Positions 53,760 to 63,540 of a stretch of DNA of 64,000 nt are shown in pieces. Origin of the DNA: Verrucomicrobiia bacterium. GTDB lineage: Bacteria; Verrucomicrobiota; Verrucomicrobiia; Palsa-1439. How positions within the stretch are numbered: position 1 is the first letter of the stretch; every line of letters begins with the position of its first letter. Location of the stretch: positions 56,089 through 120,088 of the forward strand of contig JBEKLM010000002.1 of assembly GCA_050010195.1 (NCBI GenBank), read 5' to 3'. The notes under the pieces were generated by a model. It saw nothing but the letters and a program-made list of their open reading frames with translations. It had not been told where the DNA came from and did not search any database. The translations under genes were made by a program, and so were the position numbers.

Positions 53760-53975
53760 TGACTCCGGCATGATAGCGGATTGACGGCGAAACACAACCC
53801 TGACTTCCGTCTCCATGCCAAGCCGAGTCAGGTTTCTGACGGTTCGGGCGACCACCTCGATTCCAAGCCCAACGCCATGGAAACGGCTCCCAAGTTTTCC
53901 TGCAGCAGCCGGTTGCATTTCGGGTCATTCACGGCTACTAATTGCCTGAACATCCCTTGTAGGAGGATTGGCACT

Positions 53976-55418
53976 GTGGACCTGAGCGTCCTGACGCTGT
54001 CGCGCTTTCAATTCGCGCTGACCATCATGTTTCATTACCTGTTTCCGCCGTTGTCAATCGGTCTCGGCGGCATCCTCGTCATCATGGAGGCCATCTACCT
54101 GAAAACCGGCTGCTTGGAGTACGAGGCGATGACGAAGTTTTGGACGAAGATTTTCGCGGTCAACTTCGCCATGGGCGTCGCGACCGGCATCACGATGGAA
54201 TTCCAGTTTGGCACCAATTGGGCCACCTATTCACGATACGTGGGGGACGTGTTCGGTTCGGCGCTGGCGGCCGAAGGCATTTTTGCGTTCTTTCTGGAAT
54301 CCGGGTTCCTGGCGGTATTGGTCTTCGGGTGGGACAAAGTCTCGCCGCGCATGCACTTTTTCTCGACGTGCATGGTGGCGCTCGGCGCATTCTTCTCGTC
54401 CATTTGGATCGTCATCGCCAATTCCTGGCAGCAAACACCGGCGGGCTTCCACATCGTGGGACAAGGACTCGGCGCGCGAGCGGAGATCACGGATTTCTGG
54501 GTGATGGTGTTCAACCCTTCCAGCATGCATCGATTGGCGCACACCGTGATCGGCGCCTACATCCTCGCAGCGTTTTTTGTGATGAGCATCACCGCCTACT
54601 ACATCCTGAAAGGACGGCACCTCGATTTCGCGAAGAAAAGTTTCACCATCGGCCTGATCGTGGCGACCGTGGCGTCGCTCGCCGAGCCGATCTCCGGCGA
54701 CCTGCAGGGCAAGAAGGTCGCGCAAACACAGCCCGCCAAGCTCGCGGCCATGGAAGCGGTGTTTCATACCGGCCCGGGACCGACGCCGCTGTATCTGTTC
54801 GGTCAGCCCAATCTGCAGGAGCAAGAGGTCAAACATGGCATCGCCATCCCGGGGTTGCTGAGCCTCTTGGCATATGGCGATCTTCACAAACCCGTTCCCG
54901 GGCTCGATCAAATTCCGCAACGGGATTGGCCTCCCGTTACCGCGACGTTTCAGGCGTACCACATCATGGTGTGGCTGGGCGGGCTCTTCGTGGTGCTGAC
55001 GCTCCTCGGAATGTACTTTCTCTGGAAGGCCACCCTTTTCGAGAAGCGATGGCTGCTGTGGGTGTTTGTGCTGGTGGTACCGCTGCCGTACGTCGCGAAC
55101 CAGTTCGGCTGGATGACCGCCGAGGTCGGCCGGCAGCCGTGGGTTGTGTACGGATTACTCCGCACGAGTGATGCGCTCTCGAAAGCCGTCGTCGCCAATC
55201 AGGTGCTCGGTTCCATCATCATGTTCGTCGTTATCTACGCTCTGCTGTTCGTGGTCTGGGTGTTTGTGTTGGACAGCAAGATCAAGCATGGACCAGACGA
55301 GATCGTGATCCGTCCGACCGCGACCGCGACCGGCGGACTGCTCGGCATCGCCGGCCTGCGCGCCGGCACGGGCGGCGCCTCGCTGACCGGGGCCGACAAC
55401 GTGAAGGAAAAGGAATAG
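53976..55418 (+). CDS. cydA: Cytochrome bd oxidase subunit I
   Basis: SRFQFA...[29 protein letters not shown]; AGGAGG RBS before GTG. Confidence 0.96.
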
Positions 55419-55422
55419 CGAC

Positions 55423-56439
55423 ATGGATTTGAACATTCTCTGGTTCATTCTGCTCGGCGTGTTGCTCGCGGGCTACGCGATCCTCGACGGCTTCGACCTG
55501 GGCGTCGGCATCGTGCATCTGGCCGTGAAGAGCGACCAAGAGCGCCGGATCCTGATGAACTCCATCGGGCCGCTGTGGGACGGGAACGAAGTGTGGCTGG
55601 TCACATTTGGCGGCGCGTTGTTCGCGGCGTTTCCCATCGCCTACGCGACGGCGTTCTCGGGATTCTATACCGCCTTCATGGCGCTGCTGTTTGCCTTGAT
55701 CTTTCGCGCCGTGTCGATGGAGTTCCGCAGCAAGCACGACTCGCCGTCGTGGCGCTCCTTCTGGGACGTGTCGTTCTCGCTCGCCAGCGGCGTGGCCACC
55801 CTGTTGTTTGGCGTGGCGGTCGGCAACGCCATGCGCGGCATGCCCATCGGCGCGGACATGGAATTTCACGGGGCGTTCCGCGATCTGCTGCATCCGTACG
55901 CGTTGCTCGTCGGCGTGTTTGCGGTGGCCACGTTCGCCATGCACGGTTCGATCTATCTCTATTTGAAGACGGAGGGTGATCTGCAAAAACGCATTCACGG
56001 GTGGATGTGGCGCACCTTTGGCCTTTTTCTCGTCCTGTACATCATCACGACGATCTTCACCCTGGTTGCCGTGCCGCTGGCAACCCGCAATTTCCATCAG
56101 CACCCGTGGGTGTGGATTGTCGTCGTGCTCAACGTGCTGGCCGTCGCCAATATTCCGCGGGCGACCTTCCTGGGCCGGCCCGGTTACGCCTTCCTGTCGT
56201 CTTGCGCGACGATTGCCGCACTGACGTTCCTGTTCGGGGTCGCCCTGTTCCCCGACCTGGTCCACTCGTCGCTCAATCCCGATTGGAGCCTGACGGTCTA
56301 CAACGCGGCTTCGTCGCACAAAACGCTGGCGATCATGGCGACCGTCGCCGCGCTCGGCATGCCGTTCGTGCTGGCCTACACCTCGGTTGTCTATCGGGTG
56401 TTCCGTGGTAAAGTGCAGTTGGGTACGCTCAGCTATTAA
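55423..56439 (+). CDS. cydB: Cytochrome bd oxidase subunit II
   Basis: LDGFDLGVG, PLWDGNEVWL, FRGKV. Confidence 0.96.
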   Translation: MDLNILWFILLGVLLAGYAILDGFDLGVGIVHLAVKSDQERRILMNSIGPLWDGNEVWLVTFGGALFAAFPIAYATAFSGFYTAFMALLFALIFRAVSMEFRSKHDSPSWRSFWDVSFSLASGVATLLFGVAVGNAMRGMPIGADMEFHGAFRDLLHPYALLVGVFAVATFAMHGSIYLYLKTEGDLQKRIHGWMWRTFGLFLVLYIITTIFTLVAVPLATRNFHQHPWVWIVVVLNVLAVANIPRATFLGRPGYAFLSSCATIAALTFLFGVALFPDLVHSSLNPDWSLTVYNAASSHKTLAIMATVAALGMPFVLAYTSVVYRVFRGKVQLGTLSY

Positions 56440-57503: not shown

Positions 57504-57843
57504 GATCGTGGTCAAGGATCTCGAAGTGGACACGCGTATTGGTGTGACCGAAGTCGAACGTGCCCGACCGCAGCGATTGCTTATTACCGTGGAACTCGAG
57601 TGCAATCTGGCCGAAGCCGGACGAACGGACCGGGAGTATTCCACCACGCCGTACGATGTGGTAGCCGATATGATTCACAAGACGGCCGCGGAGCGGCCAC
57701 GGAAACTGGTCGAAGCTCTGGCCGCCGACATCGCCAAAGTCATTCTCTACCGCAAATTGGCGCAGGCAGTGACCGTCGAAGTCAAAAAATTCAGTATTCC
57801 GCGGAGCCAATATGTTTCCGTCCAAATCCACCGTACTCACTAG
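57496..57843 (+). CDS. folB: Dihydroneopterin aldolase
   Basis: DKI...IGV...ER...Q, Y..V, LVEALA..IA, VEVKK. Confidence 0.88.
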   Translation: MDKIVVKDLEVDTRIGVTEVERARPQRLLITVELECNLAEAGRTDREYSTTPYDVVADMIHKTAAERPRKLVEALAADIAKVILYRKLAQAVTVEVKKFSIPRSQYVSVQIHRTH

Positions 57844-59050
57844 AGTCGGCTCGTGGACGCACTGGTGCTGGTTGCTGGCGGTGTTCGCGCTGGCCACCGT
57901 TTGCGCTCGCGCGGATACCGTCACGCTCAAGGACGGCACGGTGCTGGAGGGCGACATCCGGACGGAGGATGATGCGACGCTGTCGATCTATCTCGAGTTT
58001 GCTGGCGGCACGATCACCGAGACGCGGCAAATCAACAAGACGGACATTGCCAGGGTCGTCCGCTTGACGCCCGAGCAACGGGCGGCCTGGCAGGCGAAGC
58101 GCGATTACGAGGGAATTGAGAAGTATCAGTTGAATCCGAGCGTCAGTTTTCCGCTCAACTACTACGACCGAATTGTCCGCGACGTTTTCCACACGTTTCT
58201 CGCCAACCACCCGGATTCAGCCTACACGTCGAACGTGACCACGCGCATTGCGCAGTGGGAGACAGAGCGCGACCTGGTCGCTGCTGGAAAAATGAAGTTC
58301 CACGGCCAGTGGTTGCCGGCAGCGGAAGGCACCCGACTGGCGGAGCACGAACGCGGCCAACAGTTGCTGACACAAAGCCGCTGGCTGATTTCCCAGGGCC
58401 GGCTCGAATCCGCCATCCAACAACTTCAGGCGGTCCTCTCCCTGTCCTCGCAACCCGACCTTGTCTCCCAAGCCCGGACGCTGCTGGCCTCTGCATTTCA
58501 ACAGACCATCACCTCGCTCGACCATCAGCGTCAGCAATTGGAAGGTGACGTTGCTTCCGCACGACAGTGGGTCGATCGAGCACAACAAGCGGTCAACACA
58601 GCGGAGGGGTCGCGGAAGCAGCCCACCAGCAACGTGCAATCTCTCGGAAAGGCCGCGCCACTCACCTCTTTGCATCAGTCACTGGGGAGCGGCGATTCTC
58701 AGTCCTTTGTCCAGAACCAGGCCGCCGTCAACGCGGCCCGCGACAATCTTGCCCAGGCCCAGAGCTATCTCGATCAGACCAGAAGCCAGTTGGACGACGT
58801 GGTCCAGAAACTCGCCGCCCTTCGATCACGGGCGTCGACCGTCGAAGCCAAATGGGGAATCGTTGCTGGAGGCGGCAACTCCGACACAACCAAAGCCCAG
58901 CCGGCAGGTTCGTCGCCAAGCTCATCGGCCACCACCAATTCTCCCGATGTGCTCGTCGGCACCGTGGCCTGGCTGAAGAATAATTGGGTCTTCATGGCGG
59001 TGGGGCTGGTCGTGCTCCTGTTCTTGCTGTCTCGCCTGATAAAGGGATGA
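57812..59050 (+). CDS. Exported coiled-coil protein with C-terminal TM anchor (paralog family)
   Basis: Signal peptide, DTVTLKDG.VLEG, KYQLNP, W..ERD.VA.G..K.HGQW.PAAE, WLKNNW-TM-SRL. Confidence 0.8.
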   Translation: MFPSKSTVLTRVGSWTHWCWLLAVFALATVCARADTVTLKDGTVLEGDIRTEDDATLSIYLEFAGGTITETRQINKTDIARVVRLTPEQRAAWQAKRDYEGIEKYQLNPSVSFPLNYYDRIVRDVFHTFLANHPDSAYTSNVTTRIAQWETERDLVAAGKMKFHGQWLPAAEGTRLAEHERGQQLLTQSRWLISQGRLESAIQQLQAVLSLSSQPDLVSQARTLLASAFQQTITSLDHQRQQLEGDVASARQWVDRAQQAVNTAEGSRKQPTSNVQSLGKAAPLTSLHQSLGSGDSQSFVQNQAAVNAARDNLAQAQSYLDQTRSQLDDVVQKLAALRSRASTVEAKWGIVAGGGNSDTTKAQPAGSSPSSSATTNSPDVLVGTVAWLKNNWVFMAVGLVVLLFLLSRLIKG

Positions 59051-59148: not shown

Positions 59149-60390
59149 ATGTCCATGATATCGTTTCTGCGCGGCAACGTCGTCCGGATTCTGATTTTGG
59201 CCCTGGCTCTGTTCGGCACATGTATCGCGTCGGTTGCCTTCAGTCAAACAACCGATTCCAACATCAGCGATTATGTCACCATCAAGCTCAAAGACGGTCG
59301 TGTGCTCGAAGGACCGGTTCTCTTCGAGGACGACCAGCAAATCACCATCGAAGCGCAATTCGCCAACGGCACCATCACCCGCAAGGATCAGATCAACAAG
59401 AGCGATATCGCATCCACCTCGCACTTGAGCCCCGTCGACCGCGACCAGCGCCTGGCGACGATTGCCTCCCACGATCTCGGCAAGTACCAGCTTGATCCAC
59501 AGAACTCGTATCCCTTGTCCTACTACGACAGCGCGATTAACGATGGCTTCCGGCGTTTCCTGACGCTGTACCCCCGCGCGCTGGAGGCGACCACGATCAC
59601 CAACCGACTCGCCGAATGGCAGGAGGAACGGGACAAGGTCGCGTCGGGACAGGTCAAATACCACGGGCAATGGATGCCCGCCGCCGAGGCAAACACACTT
59701 GCCGAAACCGAGCGCACCCGGCAAATCATTCAGGATGCCAGGGCGTTGATGGCGCAAGGGCAATTCGAGGCTGCCACCGAAAAGCTCGCGCCCTATTACA
59801 ATGCGGCGCAGCCATCGCCGCTCGTGGTCGAAAGCCGGCATCTGCAGGCCGATGTGTATCGCTTGTGGATCAGCACCCTCGAAACCACGCAGGAACAACT
59901 CACCAAAGACCTCGAAGCAACCAGGGACAGGGTCACCCACCTTTCAGAAACACGATCACAAGCCCAATCCAACTATGACCAGGCTCGCAGCAAGAGTCTG
60001 AGCACGACTTCGAGAGCCCTGGGGGACAGCGCGATATCCAGCCAGGCCAGTGCGGATTATCTCCGCGCGGAGAAACAGTACAGCGAAGAGCAAAACCGCC
60101 AGTTTGCGATTCAGGAACAACTCGACAATACGATTCACCAGTTGAGACAGGTCCACCAAAGCCAGGATCTGTTCGCAGCAGCTTATCCCCCCACCGAGGT
60201 GGTGAAGGAGACGCCGCCGCCACCGAAGACGAACGCCCCCGCGCCGCCGCCGCCACCACCACCGCCACCACCGCCGCCACCGACGGTTCTCGAGCAGATG
60301 GGAGATTGGTTCGGCAGAAACTGGATCATCGTTGCCGGCGTCGGACTGCTCGGGCTCTGGGGTGTGTCGCGCTTGTTCACGCGCTCCTGA
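59149..60390 (+). CDS. Exported coiled-coil protein with poly-Pro linker and C-terminal TM anchor (paralog family)
   Basis: AGGAG RBS; IKLKDGRVLEG, KYQLDP, WQEERDKVASGQVKYHGQW.PAAE, P12 run, WFGRNW-TM-SRL. Confidence 0.82.
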   Translation: MSMISFLRGNVVRILILALALFGTCIASVAFSQTTDSNISDYVTIKLKDGRVLEGPVLFEDDQQITIEAQFANGTITRKDQINKSDIASTSHLSPVDRDQRLATIASHDLGKYQLDPQNSYPLSYYDSAINDGFRRFLTLYPRALEATTITNRLAEWQEERDKVASGQVKYHGQWMPAAEANTLAETERTRQIIQDARALMAQGQFEAATEKLAPYYNAAQPSPLVVESRHLQADVYRLWISTLETTQEQLTKDLEATRDRVTHLSETRSQAQSNYDQARSKSLSTTSRALGDSAISSQASADYLRAEKQYSEEQNRQFAIQEQLDNTIHQLRQVHQSQDLFAAAYPPTEVVKETPPPPKTNAPAPPPPPPPPPPPPPTVLEQMGDWFGRNWIIVAGVGLLGLWGVSRLFTRS

Positions 60391-60401
60391 CGACGAGACG
60401 G

Positions 60402-60974
60402 CTATTCCCAATACTTCTGGAAGTCGTCCGCGTTCGCCTTCTCAAATGTCGGGAAACGCGTATGTCCCGGATCGTTTGTTTTGACTCCGATCGCCTTTTC
60501 GATGTACTGGTAAACCTCAATCGGCTTCTGATCAAAACGGACCGTCAAGGCTTCGGGATTGTAGGGTTCCCAGATTTGGGGAACGATCACCGAGAGGCTT
60601 GTCATGACGCAACACACCAGGATTGTCGAGGAGATCAGGCCGAATACGAAACCCAACACCATGTCAATAATCCGCGGGTAACGGGGTACGGCCTGTTGTG
60701 TGACCTGATTCAGCACCAGAATCAACGGCAGGCACCCCAGCAGAAACACGGCCCAGTACGCGCCGAACGCGCCGTACGCACCCGCCCCCGGCATCACCGA
60801 TTCCACCAATGCCGTCGCCTCATACCAGTACCGCATCGTCACCATCATGGCAAAAAACAACAGGAGTGAGCTGGTCAGTTCGTAAAACACGCCGAACACC
60901 GTCCCGCCCCATGCCAGCGACAGGATCAGGACCAACGCCAAAATGCTGAGAATGACTGGAATGACTTCCGCCAT
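60402..60974 (-). CDS. CvpA-like 4-TM membrane protein
   Basis: Four TMs, ID.VLGFVFGL motif; starts 2 bp after the ATPase stop. Confidence 0.65.
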   Translation of the reverse strand: MAEVIPVILSILALVLILSLAWGGTVFGVFYELTSSLLLFFAMMVTMRYWYEATALVESVMPGAGAYGAFGAYWAVFLLGCLPLILVLNQVTQQAVPRYPRIIDMVLGFVFGLISSTILVCCVMTSLSVIVPQIWEPYNPEALTVRFDQKPIEVYQYIEKAIGVKTNDPGHTRFPTFEKANADDFQKYWE

Positions 60975-60976
60975 GG

Positions 60977-62845
60977 TTAGCTCGCTTGGATCACTTCCTC
61001 CGCCGTCGTAATCCCACTGAGGATTTTCTCCACCCCGTCTTCGCGATACGGACGGAGACCCTTGCGGGTGGCCATTTCCGCCAACACCTGTTCGTTGGCG
61101 CCATCATTCACGGCTTTCCGGAATTCCTCGTCCAGCACGAGCAACTCAAAAATCCCGGTGCGCCCCTGGTACCCGATGTTATCGCAGGCCTCGCATCCCG
61201 TCGCGCGATAGATGCGGCGTCCCGGCTCCAGCGCCATTCCAATCTCACTCAGTTCTGTCCCCGTCGCCTCATAGGCCTCGCGGCATTCCTTGCAGAGCAC
61301 GCGCACCAGGCGCTGGGCCACGACCATCAACAGCGCCGAGGAAACCTGGTAGTGCTCCACCCCGATCTCTTCCAACCGTACGACTGTCCCCACCGCATTC
61401 TTCGCGTGCAGCGAGCTGAACACCAGGTGACCCGTCAAGGCCGCGCGAATCGCGATCTTGGCCGCCTCGGCGTCGCGCATTTCGCCCACAAAAATCACGT
61501 CGGGATCCTGGCGCAGGATCGATCGCAGCCCGGCCTCATAGGTGATACCGGCTTTCACGTTGACGGGAATCTGTGTCGCCCCCTCCAGCTCATATTCCAC
61601 GGGGTCCTCGATGCTCATAATGTTCAGGCGCTTGCGGTCAAGCCGGCTGAGCGCGGCGTAGAGGGTTGATGTTTTGCCCGAACCGGTTGGCCCGGCGGCC
61701 AGGATAATGCCGTTGCGGGAGTGAATCACCCGGTCAAATCGTTGCAACATCTCCTTGCTCATGCCGAGGTCGCCCAGGCCCATCAGCCCGCTCTTGCGGT
61801 CGAGAATACGCAGCACCATTTTCTCCCCGTGAATGGCACTCGCGGTGGCCGCGCGGAAATCCACTTCTCCACCCTCGGTGCGCACGCGAAACCGCCCGTC
61901 TTGCGCCCGGCGTTTTTCGGCGACGTCGATCTGCGCCAGCGTCTTGAGCGCCGCGACTACACGCAGCCCGTCCGCCCGGGTAAATATTAACCGCTCCTGC
62001 AACGCGCCATCGACACGAAACCGCACCCGGCAACCGTCGGCCTGCGGTTCCAGATGAATGTCACTGGCCCGTTCGCTCATGGCATCTTGCAACACTTCCC
62101 GCGCCGCCTCGATGCCGGTCATTTCGGGCATATCTTTGCGGACCTGGATCTCGTTGCCGTCCACGTCCAAAAACTCCATGCCCACCCGGCGCTTTTTGGC
62201 CCGGACGGTGGCGGCAACCTTCGTCCGCCCGCCAAACAGTCCCCGCTTTTTGGGGGCCTCGCCCGGCGCCAGCCCGGCGACACGGCCGGTGAGCGTCCTC
62301 GGCCCTTCCCTGTCGCGCAGCTGACGCCGGCGCTTGACCAGATAAATCACAAATCCGAGGACAGGGAGAAGCAGCACGTCCGCATTCGCACGTTTGATTT
62401 CTTCCGGCATCCCCTTGACATCGTGTTGCACCCAAATCAATGCGCCAATCCACGCCAGCGCCGTCAGTCCCATAACCAACAGAAGAATGTCCATCGACCA
62501 GCGACGCACATACGGAAGTGCCATGGACCCGGGATGGGAATTCGCGGCGGGTGCGGGTTGGGGTTCTTTGCTTCCGGGGGTTCCTGAATCTGGTGCCTTT
62601 GCAGATGGAGGAATCGCGACGCCGTCGATGCTCTCGACCTTGTCCAGAGGCAGTTTGACCTTTCCGTATGGCACGGTAATCAGGATGCCCTGGTCATCAC
62701 GCTCCAGAATCTCGGCGTCAGGATACACCTTGCCGTCCTTCAGCTTCACTTCCGATGCAACGAGCGAACTGACGGCCAGAAAAGCTGCTAGAACGACGAG
62801 CTTGAAGCCTTGCAAGGTCGCATGCCTTTCTTCTTTGATGCCCAC
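60977..62845 (-). CDS. GspE/PilB-family traffic ATPase with exported N-terminal domain and two TMs
   Basis: ASDIHLEP, RFRVDG, GPTGSGKTST, EDPVE, RQDPDVIFVGEMRD, TGHLV..SLH, CKEC/CEAC. Confidence 0.92.
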   Translation of the reverse strand: MGIKEERHATLQGFKLVVLAAFLAVSSLVASEVKLKDGKVYPDAEILERDDQGILITVPYGKVKLPLDKVESIDGVAIPPSAKAPDSGTPGSKEPQPAPAANSHPGSMALPYVRRWSMDILLLVMGLTALAWIGALIWVQHDVKGMPEEIKRANADVLLLPVLGFVIYLVKRRRQLRDREGPRTLTGRVAGLAPGEAPKKRGLFGGRTKVAATVRAKKRRVGMEFLDVDGNEIQVRKDMPEMTGIEAAREVLQDAMSERASDIHLEPQADGCRVRFRVDGALQERLIFTRADGLRVVAALKTLAQIDVAEKRRAQDGRFRVRTEGGEVDFRAATASAIHGEKMVLRILDRKSGLMGLGDLGMSKEMLQRFDRVIHSRNGIILAAGPTGSGKTSTLYAALSRLDRKRLNIMSIEDPVEYELEGATQIPVNVKAGITYEAGLRSILRQDPDVIFVGEMRDAEAAKIAIRAALTGHLVFSSLHAKNAVGTVVRLEEIGVEHYQVSSALLMVVAQRLVRVLCKECREAYEATGTELSEIGMALEPGRRIYRATGCEACDNIGYQGRTGIFELLVLDEEFRKAVNDGANEQVLAEMATRKGLRPYREDGVEKILSGITTAEEVIQAS

Positions 62846-62934: not shown

Positions 62935-63540
62935 CTAATCGTCCGCCGGCTCTTTAGCCGCCAATTCCCCGGTCGTTTTCGAATGATTGCCCTGTGCCTG
63001 GATCATGCCGCTCTGGCGGGCGAAATCGAATAGACCACCCGCGTCGATCACAGGCCGCGCGTCCCCGAGCGATTTCGTTGCGAAAATCTTCGAGGATTTG
63101 AGAACCTTGAGTGTGTTCGCGTCCAGATCGAGTTCGATTTCGTCGCCGGTCCGGATCGTTTCGCAGATTCGCGTTGTCGATTCCACGGGATAAAGCTCGC
63201 CGGTCGCTACGCTGTTGCGAAAGAAAATCCGCGCAAAACTTTCCGCCACCACCGCCTCGCATCCCGCCGCCCCGAGGGCAATCGGAGCATGCTCGCGGGA
63301 ACTGCCACAGCCGAAATTGCGACCACCAATGACAATTGTGTACGGCCCCCTGGTTTGCCCTTCGGCAATATACCGGGTCGGATACTGGTCCTTCGGCAGA
63401 CCGCACAACGCGTAGCTGCCGAGTTTCTCGTATTCTTCTGGAATCGTGGGCACGAGGGTCAGATACTGCGCCGGGATAATCTGGTCGGTATCGATATTGT
63501 CCCGCACAACATATGCCTTTCCGCGAATCACCTTGCTCAT
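62935..63540 (-). CDS. leuD: 3-isopropylmalate dehydratase small subunit
   Basis: NIDTDQIIPA, NFGCGSSREHAP, SFARIFFRN, AGGL. Confidence 0.9.
   Translation of the reverse strand: MSKVIRGKAYVVRDNIDTDQIIPAQYLTLVPTIPEEYEKLGSYALCGLPKDQYPTRYIAEGQTRGPYTIVIGGRNFGCGSSREHAPIALGAAGCEAVVAESFARIFFRNSVATGELYPVESTTRICETIRTGDEIELDLDANTLKVLKSSKIFATKSLGDARPVIDAGGLFDFARQSGMIQAQGNHSKTTGELAAKEPADD

Follow-up and report, generated by a model that had tools for sequence, protein, structure and literature searches.

A predicted membrane-anchored ATPase of the PilB/GspE clade encoded next to CvpA in Verrucomicrobia, Planctomycetes and Omnitrophota

Introduction

In reviews the ATPases that drive pilus extension are motors of the cytoplasm, bound to PilM and acting on PilC, and the word "transmembrane" is absent from the source (PMC11656802). 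Here we describe an ATPase gene of the same clade in a 64,000-nt stretch of DNA (the window) from a Verrucomicrobiia bacterium (assembly GCA_050010195.1, contig JBEKLM010000002.1; genome G000 below), whose product carries a predicted membrane anchor and whose immediate neighbour is a cvpA gene. The closest described proteins are PilB/PilF of type IVa pilus extension (5oiu, 5tsh) and GspE/EpsE in type II secretion systems (T2SS; 1p9r, 4ksr, 4pht). With them the protein shares the N2 and C-terminal domains (N2D and CTD, 39-45% identity), both Walker motifs (A and B), the Asp and His boxes, two Arg fingers, the tetracysteine and pore loop 1. The core is thus an ordinary PilB/GspE fold, yet the protein falls below the equivalog cut-offs of TIGR02533 and TIGR02538, has a predicted signal peptide, barrel and membrane anchor instead of the N1D/MshEN domain, has lost an Arg of helix alpha2, is linked to cvpA and not to pilC or gspF, and occupies its own branch of the tree.

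Two further systems are relevant. CvpA is spread over 55 phyla and its function is largely unknown; in E. coli genetic evidence connects the gene with the sigma-E response and with deoxycholate resistance, and the parts of this source used here name no ATPase partner for it (10.1101/2020.09.25.314492). The CvpA of our locus resembles the E. coli protein in its four predicted transmembrane (TM) helices, its PF02674 match above cut-off and its invariant Asp and Gly, but belongs to a separate subfamily with a conserved C-terminal tail. In the PilT-PilU pair of Vibrio cholerae, one ring acts through a second, even ATP-dead, ring, so that PilU powers retraction via ATP-dead PilT (PMC6821130; see also PMC13584747). 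Both of these are soluble retraction ATPases acting on PilC, whereas the putative dock considered below is a membrane-fixed member of the PilB clade.

Results

The ATPase gene

The frame is open over 622 codons from a GTG at 62845 to position 60977 on the minus strand, and residues are numbered from this GTG. The true start is likely the TTG at 62815 (residue 11): in two relatives codons 1-10 are interrupted by an in-frame stop, and the TTG is preceded, 9 nt upstream, by AAGG. PF00437 covers residues 249-619 (396 bits, above cut-off). Among the NCBIfam models those for GspE/PilB outrank those for PilT, VirB11 and FlaI (TIGR02533 E 8e-138, compared with 6e-45 for TIGR01420 and 4e-13 for VirB11), although the scores stay under the equivalog cut-offs (418 against 675.65 bits for TIGR02538 and 460 against 630.25 bits for TIGR02533). 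No match to N1D/MshEN (PF05157) was obtained with the query at E up to 1, nor among the 25 families listed for 32 members. Following the motif list in PMC5424180, the core has Walker A at 385, the Asp box at 413, Walker B with its Glu at 454 (E455), the His box at 471, CxxC pairs at 518 and 551, and pore-loop residues D458/E460. Judged by these motifs and rankings, the protein is a member of the PilB/GspE clade with an intact core. The two Arg fingers are presumably R331 and R346.

An earlier note, made from the letters of this DNA alone, had described a signal-peptide-like N-terminus, a small beta-rich domain, a Pro-rich linker, a basic stretch and a complete traffic ATPase in one self-anchored motor protein, and had held that an N-terminal region encoded separately in relatives would speak against it. 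All of these elements were seen again. Residues 15-245 alone, used as a query, retrieved 94 proteins, every one of which carries PF00437; those with a taxon name come from Verrucomicrobiia or Verrucomicrobiae. In the alignment of 95 sequences (the query and these 94, one of which is the query's own cluster) 83 score for the signal-peptide-like stretch, 87 for the barrel, 90 for TM1, 91 for the second hydrophobic segment and 90-93 for each of the catalytic motifs; the misses are mostly records truncated at the N- or C-terminus. Because these elements co-occur across the alignment, the ATPase is a fusion and not two genes. A separate N-terminal gene was rejected, since two pieces are found only in G001 and other relatives have full-length frames. 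Foreign origin of the locus was also rejected (GC content 61%, compared with 59% genome-wide), and a promoter and terminator scan of the locus gave no signal above chance.

Topology of the anchor

The signal peptide and TM segments were assigned from hydropathy (peaks at residues 13-31, 120-138 and 153-171), conservation and a full-length AlphaFold2 model whose mean predicted local distance difference test score (pLDDT) was 69 and predicted template-modelling score 0.49. The earlier note had counted two TM helices. Two hydrophobic segments are indeed present, but two full crossings after an exported domain would place the ATPase on the outside. The second segment, which has only about 14 apolar residues, a helix break at 160-162 in the model and a strongly basic stretch behind it, is therefore likely a re-entrant hairpin that dips into the inner leaflet. 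Its P161 and G164 are present in 91 of the 95 sequences, the remainder being gaps. Weak matches to PLDc_N (PF13396) were obtained here (E 0.06 in 2 of 32 members; 16.9 bits in L149, under the cut-off of 23.3). The planctomycete members described below have a longer segment at this place, by eye two helices, which would give three crossings overall; a re-entrant hairpin would fit both kinds of anchor.

The barrel (residues 31-78) is modelled with five strands at pLDDT 91. It resembles Hfq/Sm proteins (2qtx, 1kq1), C-terminal domains of BirA, DUF903 lipoproteins and SHD1, and superposes on Hfq with an rmsd of 1.3 Å over 44 residues (Foldseek TMq 0.77, E 0.11). In structure comparison BirA and an accessory domain of a cytochrome ranked level with Hfq, and the Z of 7.0-7.3 over 43-44 residues may reflect merely a common arrangement. 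The match to NF047433 was below cut-off. In contrast to the Hfq/Sm barrels, this one is predicted to be periplasmic; identity is at most 23% and Z is under 8. RNA binding and ring formation are unsupported.

The anchor region retrieved only 12 representative proteins, one of them spurious, residues 105-250 had no match in the ESM Atlas, and sequence searches of the PDB with the CvpA and anchor profiles returned nothing below E 0.1.

A dedicated cvpA beside the ATPase gene

The CvpA-like gene reported by the earlier note as adjoining the ATPase was confirmed (PF02674, 41.9 bits against a cut-off of 29.3; four hydrophobic regions), and it is the only PF02674 match in G000. A cvpA lies immediately 3′ of the ATPase gene in all 21 close loci (20 loci of relatives plus the window). 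A profile of the linked copies scores them at 283 bits or more and other cvpAs at 26 bits or less. The N-terminal region of the ATPase was found in 27 of 61 genomes, its match in G052 being the barrel alone, and the linked cvpA subfamily in 26 of the 61, namely 25 relatives with the anchored ATPase and G029. Of the genomes G001-G060, 26 have both the anchored ATPase and its CvpA subfamily and the other 34 yielded neither, a count in which the ATPase of G029 was recognised only after its cvpA, several genomes are incomplete and all are kin.

In G029 (L409:897-2904) the anchored ATPase is catalytically degenerate, has no signal peptide or barrel and overlaps its cvpA; a divergent gene for an FHA-like membrane protein lies upstream. 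A canonical cvpA copy in this family precedes dnaG. No ATPase of this kind lies within 1.5 kb of the 30 best canonical cvpAs of Planctomycetota or the 30 best of Omnitrophota, beyond which there were weaker matches (29 and 31). An apparent ATPase-CvpA fusion of 761 aa in G010 was rejected as a Rosetta stone, because it is produced by insertions of single bases, and one of these disrupts cvpA as well.

Distribution in three phyla

The architecture and neighbourhood were searched in other genomes of the Planctomycetes-Verrucomicrobia-Chlamydiae (PVC) group, as the earlier note had advised; the anchored ATPase with cvpA recurs in Verrucomicrobiota and Planctomycetota and also in Omnitrophota. Among further genomes of the phylum, one of 400 (G066, from another class) has the same architecture with cvpA. 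A contig scan covering 1/64 of the parts yielded one Omnitrophota member (L149) and one planctomycete member, with cvpA next in each. The phylum searches scored only 4-10 candidates per genome, so their counts are not frequencies per phylum. The whole protein led in the ESM Atlas to planctomycete T2SSE clusters (0.91-0.93), which served only as a lead.

The planctomycete set consists of 22 loci in 21 genomes, chosen from top matches and so not a random sample. Fifteen loci have cvpA next to the ATPase (Pfam E ≤0.001, mostly under cut-off), one has a cvpA look-alike without a Pfam match, five have DUF6793-type genes instead and one has none of these. In all five genomes where DUF6793-type genes replace cvpA, an unlinked planctomycete cvpA (53-61% identical) is found elsewhere. 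Three of the 22 ATPases are catalytically degenerate. Dead members that keep the anchor, the fold and cvpA are L395 and, in G029, L409, while L394 keeps the look-alike lacking a Pfam match. A pilT-family gene lies 5′ of 12 of the 22 loci (L355 uninspected). In Omnitrophota cvpA is adjacent in one of three members.

Barrels are absent from the planctomycete and Omnitrophota members and from G029 of the same family as the source genome; the barrel is dispensable, and it was rejected as the functional core. The suggestion of periplasmic sensing or substrate binding in the earlier note is, for the same reason, unsupported as the point of the protein, and a similar barrel is found in neighbouring proteins (see below). 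The conserved core of the system is the anchor, the ATPase fold and the dedicated CvpA.

Some of the distant loci have peculiarities of their own. The Omnitrophota members (L149:3087-4652, L360 and L361) have a Cys-rich, zinc-ribbon-like insert after the anchor, and a cell-wall amidase gene follows (after cvpA where that is present). At L187:2768-3919 and L395:6196-7839 the linked CvpAs have long C-terminal extensions, which in L187 include a cadherin/Ig domain.

Loss of the alpha2 Arg

Position 299, which the model puts in alpha2, the N2-domain helix that separates strands 3 and 4, is Arg in 137 of 138 soluble cores, in none of 29 anchored cores and in none of the 95 family proteins. In an AlphaFold model of PulE6-PulF3 the interface is formed by alpha2 and the alpha2-beta4 loop (PMC10790770), and PilB has been modelled with its N-terminal face on PilC (10.64898/2026.02.24.707734). 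Pore-loop residues equivalent to D458/E460 have been linked to PilC binding, yet they are conserved in most PilT-like ATPases (PMC5424180).

Phylogenetic relatedness

The main tree was calculated for 170 ATPase cores, from which 21 loci had been removed as near-duplicates; rows below 380 bits, and hence the dead members, were excluded. The ATPase trees were midpoint-rooted, and the profile that selected their rows had been made from anchored members. One clade of 32 (FastTree support 0.94) holds every one of the 29 anchored cores. With IQ-TREE and 68 rows the members form three phylum-level groups (Shimodaira-Hasegawa-like approximate likelihood ratio test, SH-aLRT, 99, 100 and 99), and 42 of 43 other soluble rows, including five paralogues from G000, are set apart by a branch of SH-aLRT 90.

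At L214:2080-3846, L218:7506-9239, L181:6885-9107 and L397:4757-6553, planctomycete PilB/GspE ATPases were seen that lack an anchor and begin with a domain which by eye is FHA-like. The three of this type placed in the tree also have no alpha2 Arg.

The PilTs linked to planctomycete loci group with G000 C5:51565-52755 (L012) at SH-aLRT 100, in a tree of 32 rows with few outgroups. This C5 gene is an orphan PilT-family gene, highly conserved in the family.

Platform genes in the source genome

The earlier note had stressed that platform genes are lacking. On the contig of the window PF00482, PF00263 and PF11104 indeed have no match, and the window contains no prepilin motif; nor was a gene for PilC, a pilin or a secretin recognised next to any of the anchored members inspected. 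However, G000 has elsewhere 16 matches to PF00482, five to PF00263 (secretin) and four to PF11104 (PilM-like; three over cut-off), along with 12 matches over cut-off to PF00437. The argument from missing platform genes is therefore valid for the locus only.

Discussion

If the anchor, the ATPase fold and CvpA are the constant parts of this system, then we can ask: what would such a protein do in the membrane? We see about even chances that the anchored PilB/GspE-family ring works with the co-encoded CvpA instead of a PilC/GspF platform. This partnership is favoured by the linkage and co-occurrence of cvpA and by the loss of the alpha2 Arg. The signal peptide would export the barrel, TM1 would return the chain to the cytoplasm and the Pro-kinked segment would dip into the inner leaflet, so that the anchor substitutes for N1D docking. 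Six subunits would then form a membrane-fixed ring with the N2 face toward the membrane, and CvpA, placed within the ring of anchors or next to it, would take up the conformational cycle in place of PilC. A dead ring could be a dock for a PilT/PilU-type partner, as ATP-dead PilT is for PilU; by this analogy the PilT-PilU precedent may explain operons that combine pilT with a dead anchored ATPase. In the source genome the ring would burn ATP itself, with the unlinked PilT-family gene on contig C5 as a possible partner. The most probable output would be mechanical work at the inner membrane, for envelope upkeep or the handling of pilin-like membrane proteins, and this is the weakest step.

Several observations weigh against this partnership. 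All carriers tested encode PilC/GspF (PF00482 in 38 of 38 relatives), and platform use in trans is thus possible. Adjacent genes are trivially lost together and the genomes are kin, so that the co-occurrence overstates independence. In Omnitrophota cvpA is not adjacent in two of the three members, whose only copy, located elsewhere, is 27% identical, and the three anchor-less FHA-domain ATPases nest inside the anchored clade. PilT of the C5 type occurs in 43 of 61 genomes, some of them without the anchored ATPase, and few PilU outgroups are included in its tree. The pore-loop residues D458/E460 and the neighbouring alpha2 Lys are retained, and the role of the alpha2 Arg is read, at the level of the helix, from another group's prediction; the Arg may be structural.

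The trans use of platforms leads to an explanation that we regard as doubtful but deserving close attention, in which the protein is an accessory extension motor for an ordinary type IV pilus or T2SS: its anchor replaces docking of N1D on PilM/GspL, CvpA is a stator or assembly factor, and force still passes through PilC/GspF. The catalytic, zinc and pore-loop-1 residues are all retained, the nearest solved structures are PilF, GspE and PilB, at the identity given above, platforms are present in every relative tested, and Acinetobacter baylyi uses two extension motors for one pilus (PMC11656802). Even so, the alpha2 Arg is lost in every anchored member, dead versions have been retained, and the gene never lies beside pilC in the loci inspected. 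A platform cluster on contig C46 of G000, which has no ATPase match on its contig, could be a client of such a motor, but it could also be served by a second orphan, an ordinary PilB on C62.

The dead versions would be easier to understand if the anchored ring and CvpA were a signalling or regulatory switch that reports the state of the envelope (here via the barrel) and sequesters or releases a PilT-type ATPase or feeds an envelope stress response. Some lineages dispense with catalysis, the periplasmic part varies freely among lineages, and E. coli cvpA is tied to sigma-E and deoxycholate resistance (10.1101/2020.09.25.314492). We hold a switch to be improbable, because 90-93 of the 95 family proteins and every one of the 29 scored anchored cores keep the motifs (the dead ones being below the score cut), the barrel is dispensable, and no sigma, anti-sigma or kinase gene is recurrent in the neighbourhood clusters. 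It is also conceivable, although very unlikely, that the ATPase is an orphan paralogue and that it and cvpA are ancient neighbours which do not act together. The housekeeping neighbours leuD and folB likewise persist within the family, and the pair is separated in five planctomycete and two Omnitrophota genomes; yet cvpA stays while all other neighbours change between phyla, and the linked cvpA is a distinct subfamily, kept in Planctomycetota even when unlinked.

As the earlier note had supposed, a core of an undescribed machine is plausible, with the ATPase now tied to CvpA; such a machine would act at the membrane and occur in Verrucomicrobia, Planctomycetes and Omnitrophota. More tentatively, and with less confidence than the partnership of ring and CvpA, we suggest an ancient PVC and Omnitrophota machine that was uncoupled from PilC, in which a PilB ring embedded in the membrane, whether active or dead, would perform non-pilus work with a PilT-type partner and with CvpA as effector. 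If this were true, CvpA would for the first time have a direct mechanical partner, and the ring would be the first PilB-clade motor running without a PilC/GspF platform. A membrane-fixed subfamily in three phyla, with an altered platform-binding helix, tests the generality of the cytoplasmic-motor rule, and a fixed ATPase partner would make the function of CvpA directly testable. The envelope of planctomycetes presents puzzles such as dextran-binding fibres and membrane contact sites (PMC5394234), and the anchored ATPase-CvpA module is a candidate for study in this context. No publication describing the combination of anchored ATPase and CvpA was found in the open-access literature, supplements aside. 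New here are the connection between the forms in the three phyla, the alpha2 Arg as a marker, the co-occurrence, a member of the same family that is dead and has no barrel, and the correction of the topology.

Features of the locus and other observations

Coordinates are collected in Table 1. The two PTPDL-like proteins encoded convergently to the pair each have an N-terminal small barrel, a long helical region and a C-terminal membrane anchor, and their match to NF041881 is below cut-off. Their barrels compare with that of the ATPase at hhalign probabilities of 61 and 90. In relatives one or two copies lie behind folB. Their position beside the ATPase is probably synteny; as subunits they are unsupported, since they lie on the opposite strand and are missing from four of the 21 close loci and from the distant loci.

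Table 1. Positions of the ATPase gene, its parts and its neighbours in the window
Feature	Position	Strand	Basis or remark
Membrane-anchored PilB/GspE-clade ATPase gene	60977..62815	-	612 aa from likely TTG; frame open from GTG at 62845
Predicted Sec signal peptide, residues 11-30	62756..62815	-	Hydropathy; cleavage likely after A30, nearly invariant; 83/95
Small beta-barrel, Sm/Hfq-like (SH3-like), predicted periplasmic, residues 31-78	62612..62755	-	Verrucomicrobiota members only
Pro-rich linker, variable length, residues 79-110	62516..62611	-	Alignment; pLDDT <50
TM1 (predicted), residues 116-142	62420..62500	-	Hydropathy, cross-phylum comparison; ends in W-V-x-x-D motif kept across three phyla
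Second hydrophobic segment, PLDc_N-like, residues 152-172	62330..62392	-	Model helix break, conservation; invariant P161-x-x-G164
Basic juxtamembrane stretch	62180..62329	-	Positive-inside signal; 18 K/R and 3 D/E in residues 170-222
Short conserved beta element before N2, residues 224-235	62141..62176	-	Conservation; occupies the place of N1/MshEN
ATPase core (N2D + CTD)	60989..62101	-	Walker A/B, Asp box, His box, Cys4, R331, R346 all intact
N2D helix alpha2, residues 290-303	61937..61978	-	Ala299 (61949-61951) where soluble PilB/GspE have Arg
cvpA, dedicated subfamily	60402..60974	-	190 aa with four predicted TM helices and a conserved C-terminal tail; 2 bp from ATPase frame
leuD-like gene, upstream context	62935..63540	-	Cluster in 16/21 close loci; no such gene seen next to distant members
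Two convergent PTPDL-like exported proteins, context	57812-59050 and 59149-60390	+	17/21 close loci

Further from the pair, the window contains at 49466-53918 genes for acyltransferase, LolA-like, FabZ-like, AMP-ligase and radical-SAM-like proteins, by eye a small lipid-modification cluster, followed by cytochrome bd genes at 53781-56439.

Other loci of G000 also encode pilus or secretion components. At C33:22442-36199 a PilB-PilT-PilB-PilC cluster lies opposite a secretin/PilM operon, which we take to resemble the Amuc_1098-1102 type of Akkermansia. C30:9398-10942 encodes a PilB-like ATPase that starts with a helix-turn-helix-like DNA-binding domain, and a divergent GspE/GspF-like cluster at C7:83824-87342 has two platform-like genes.

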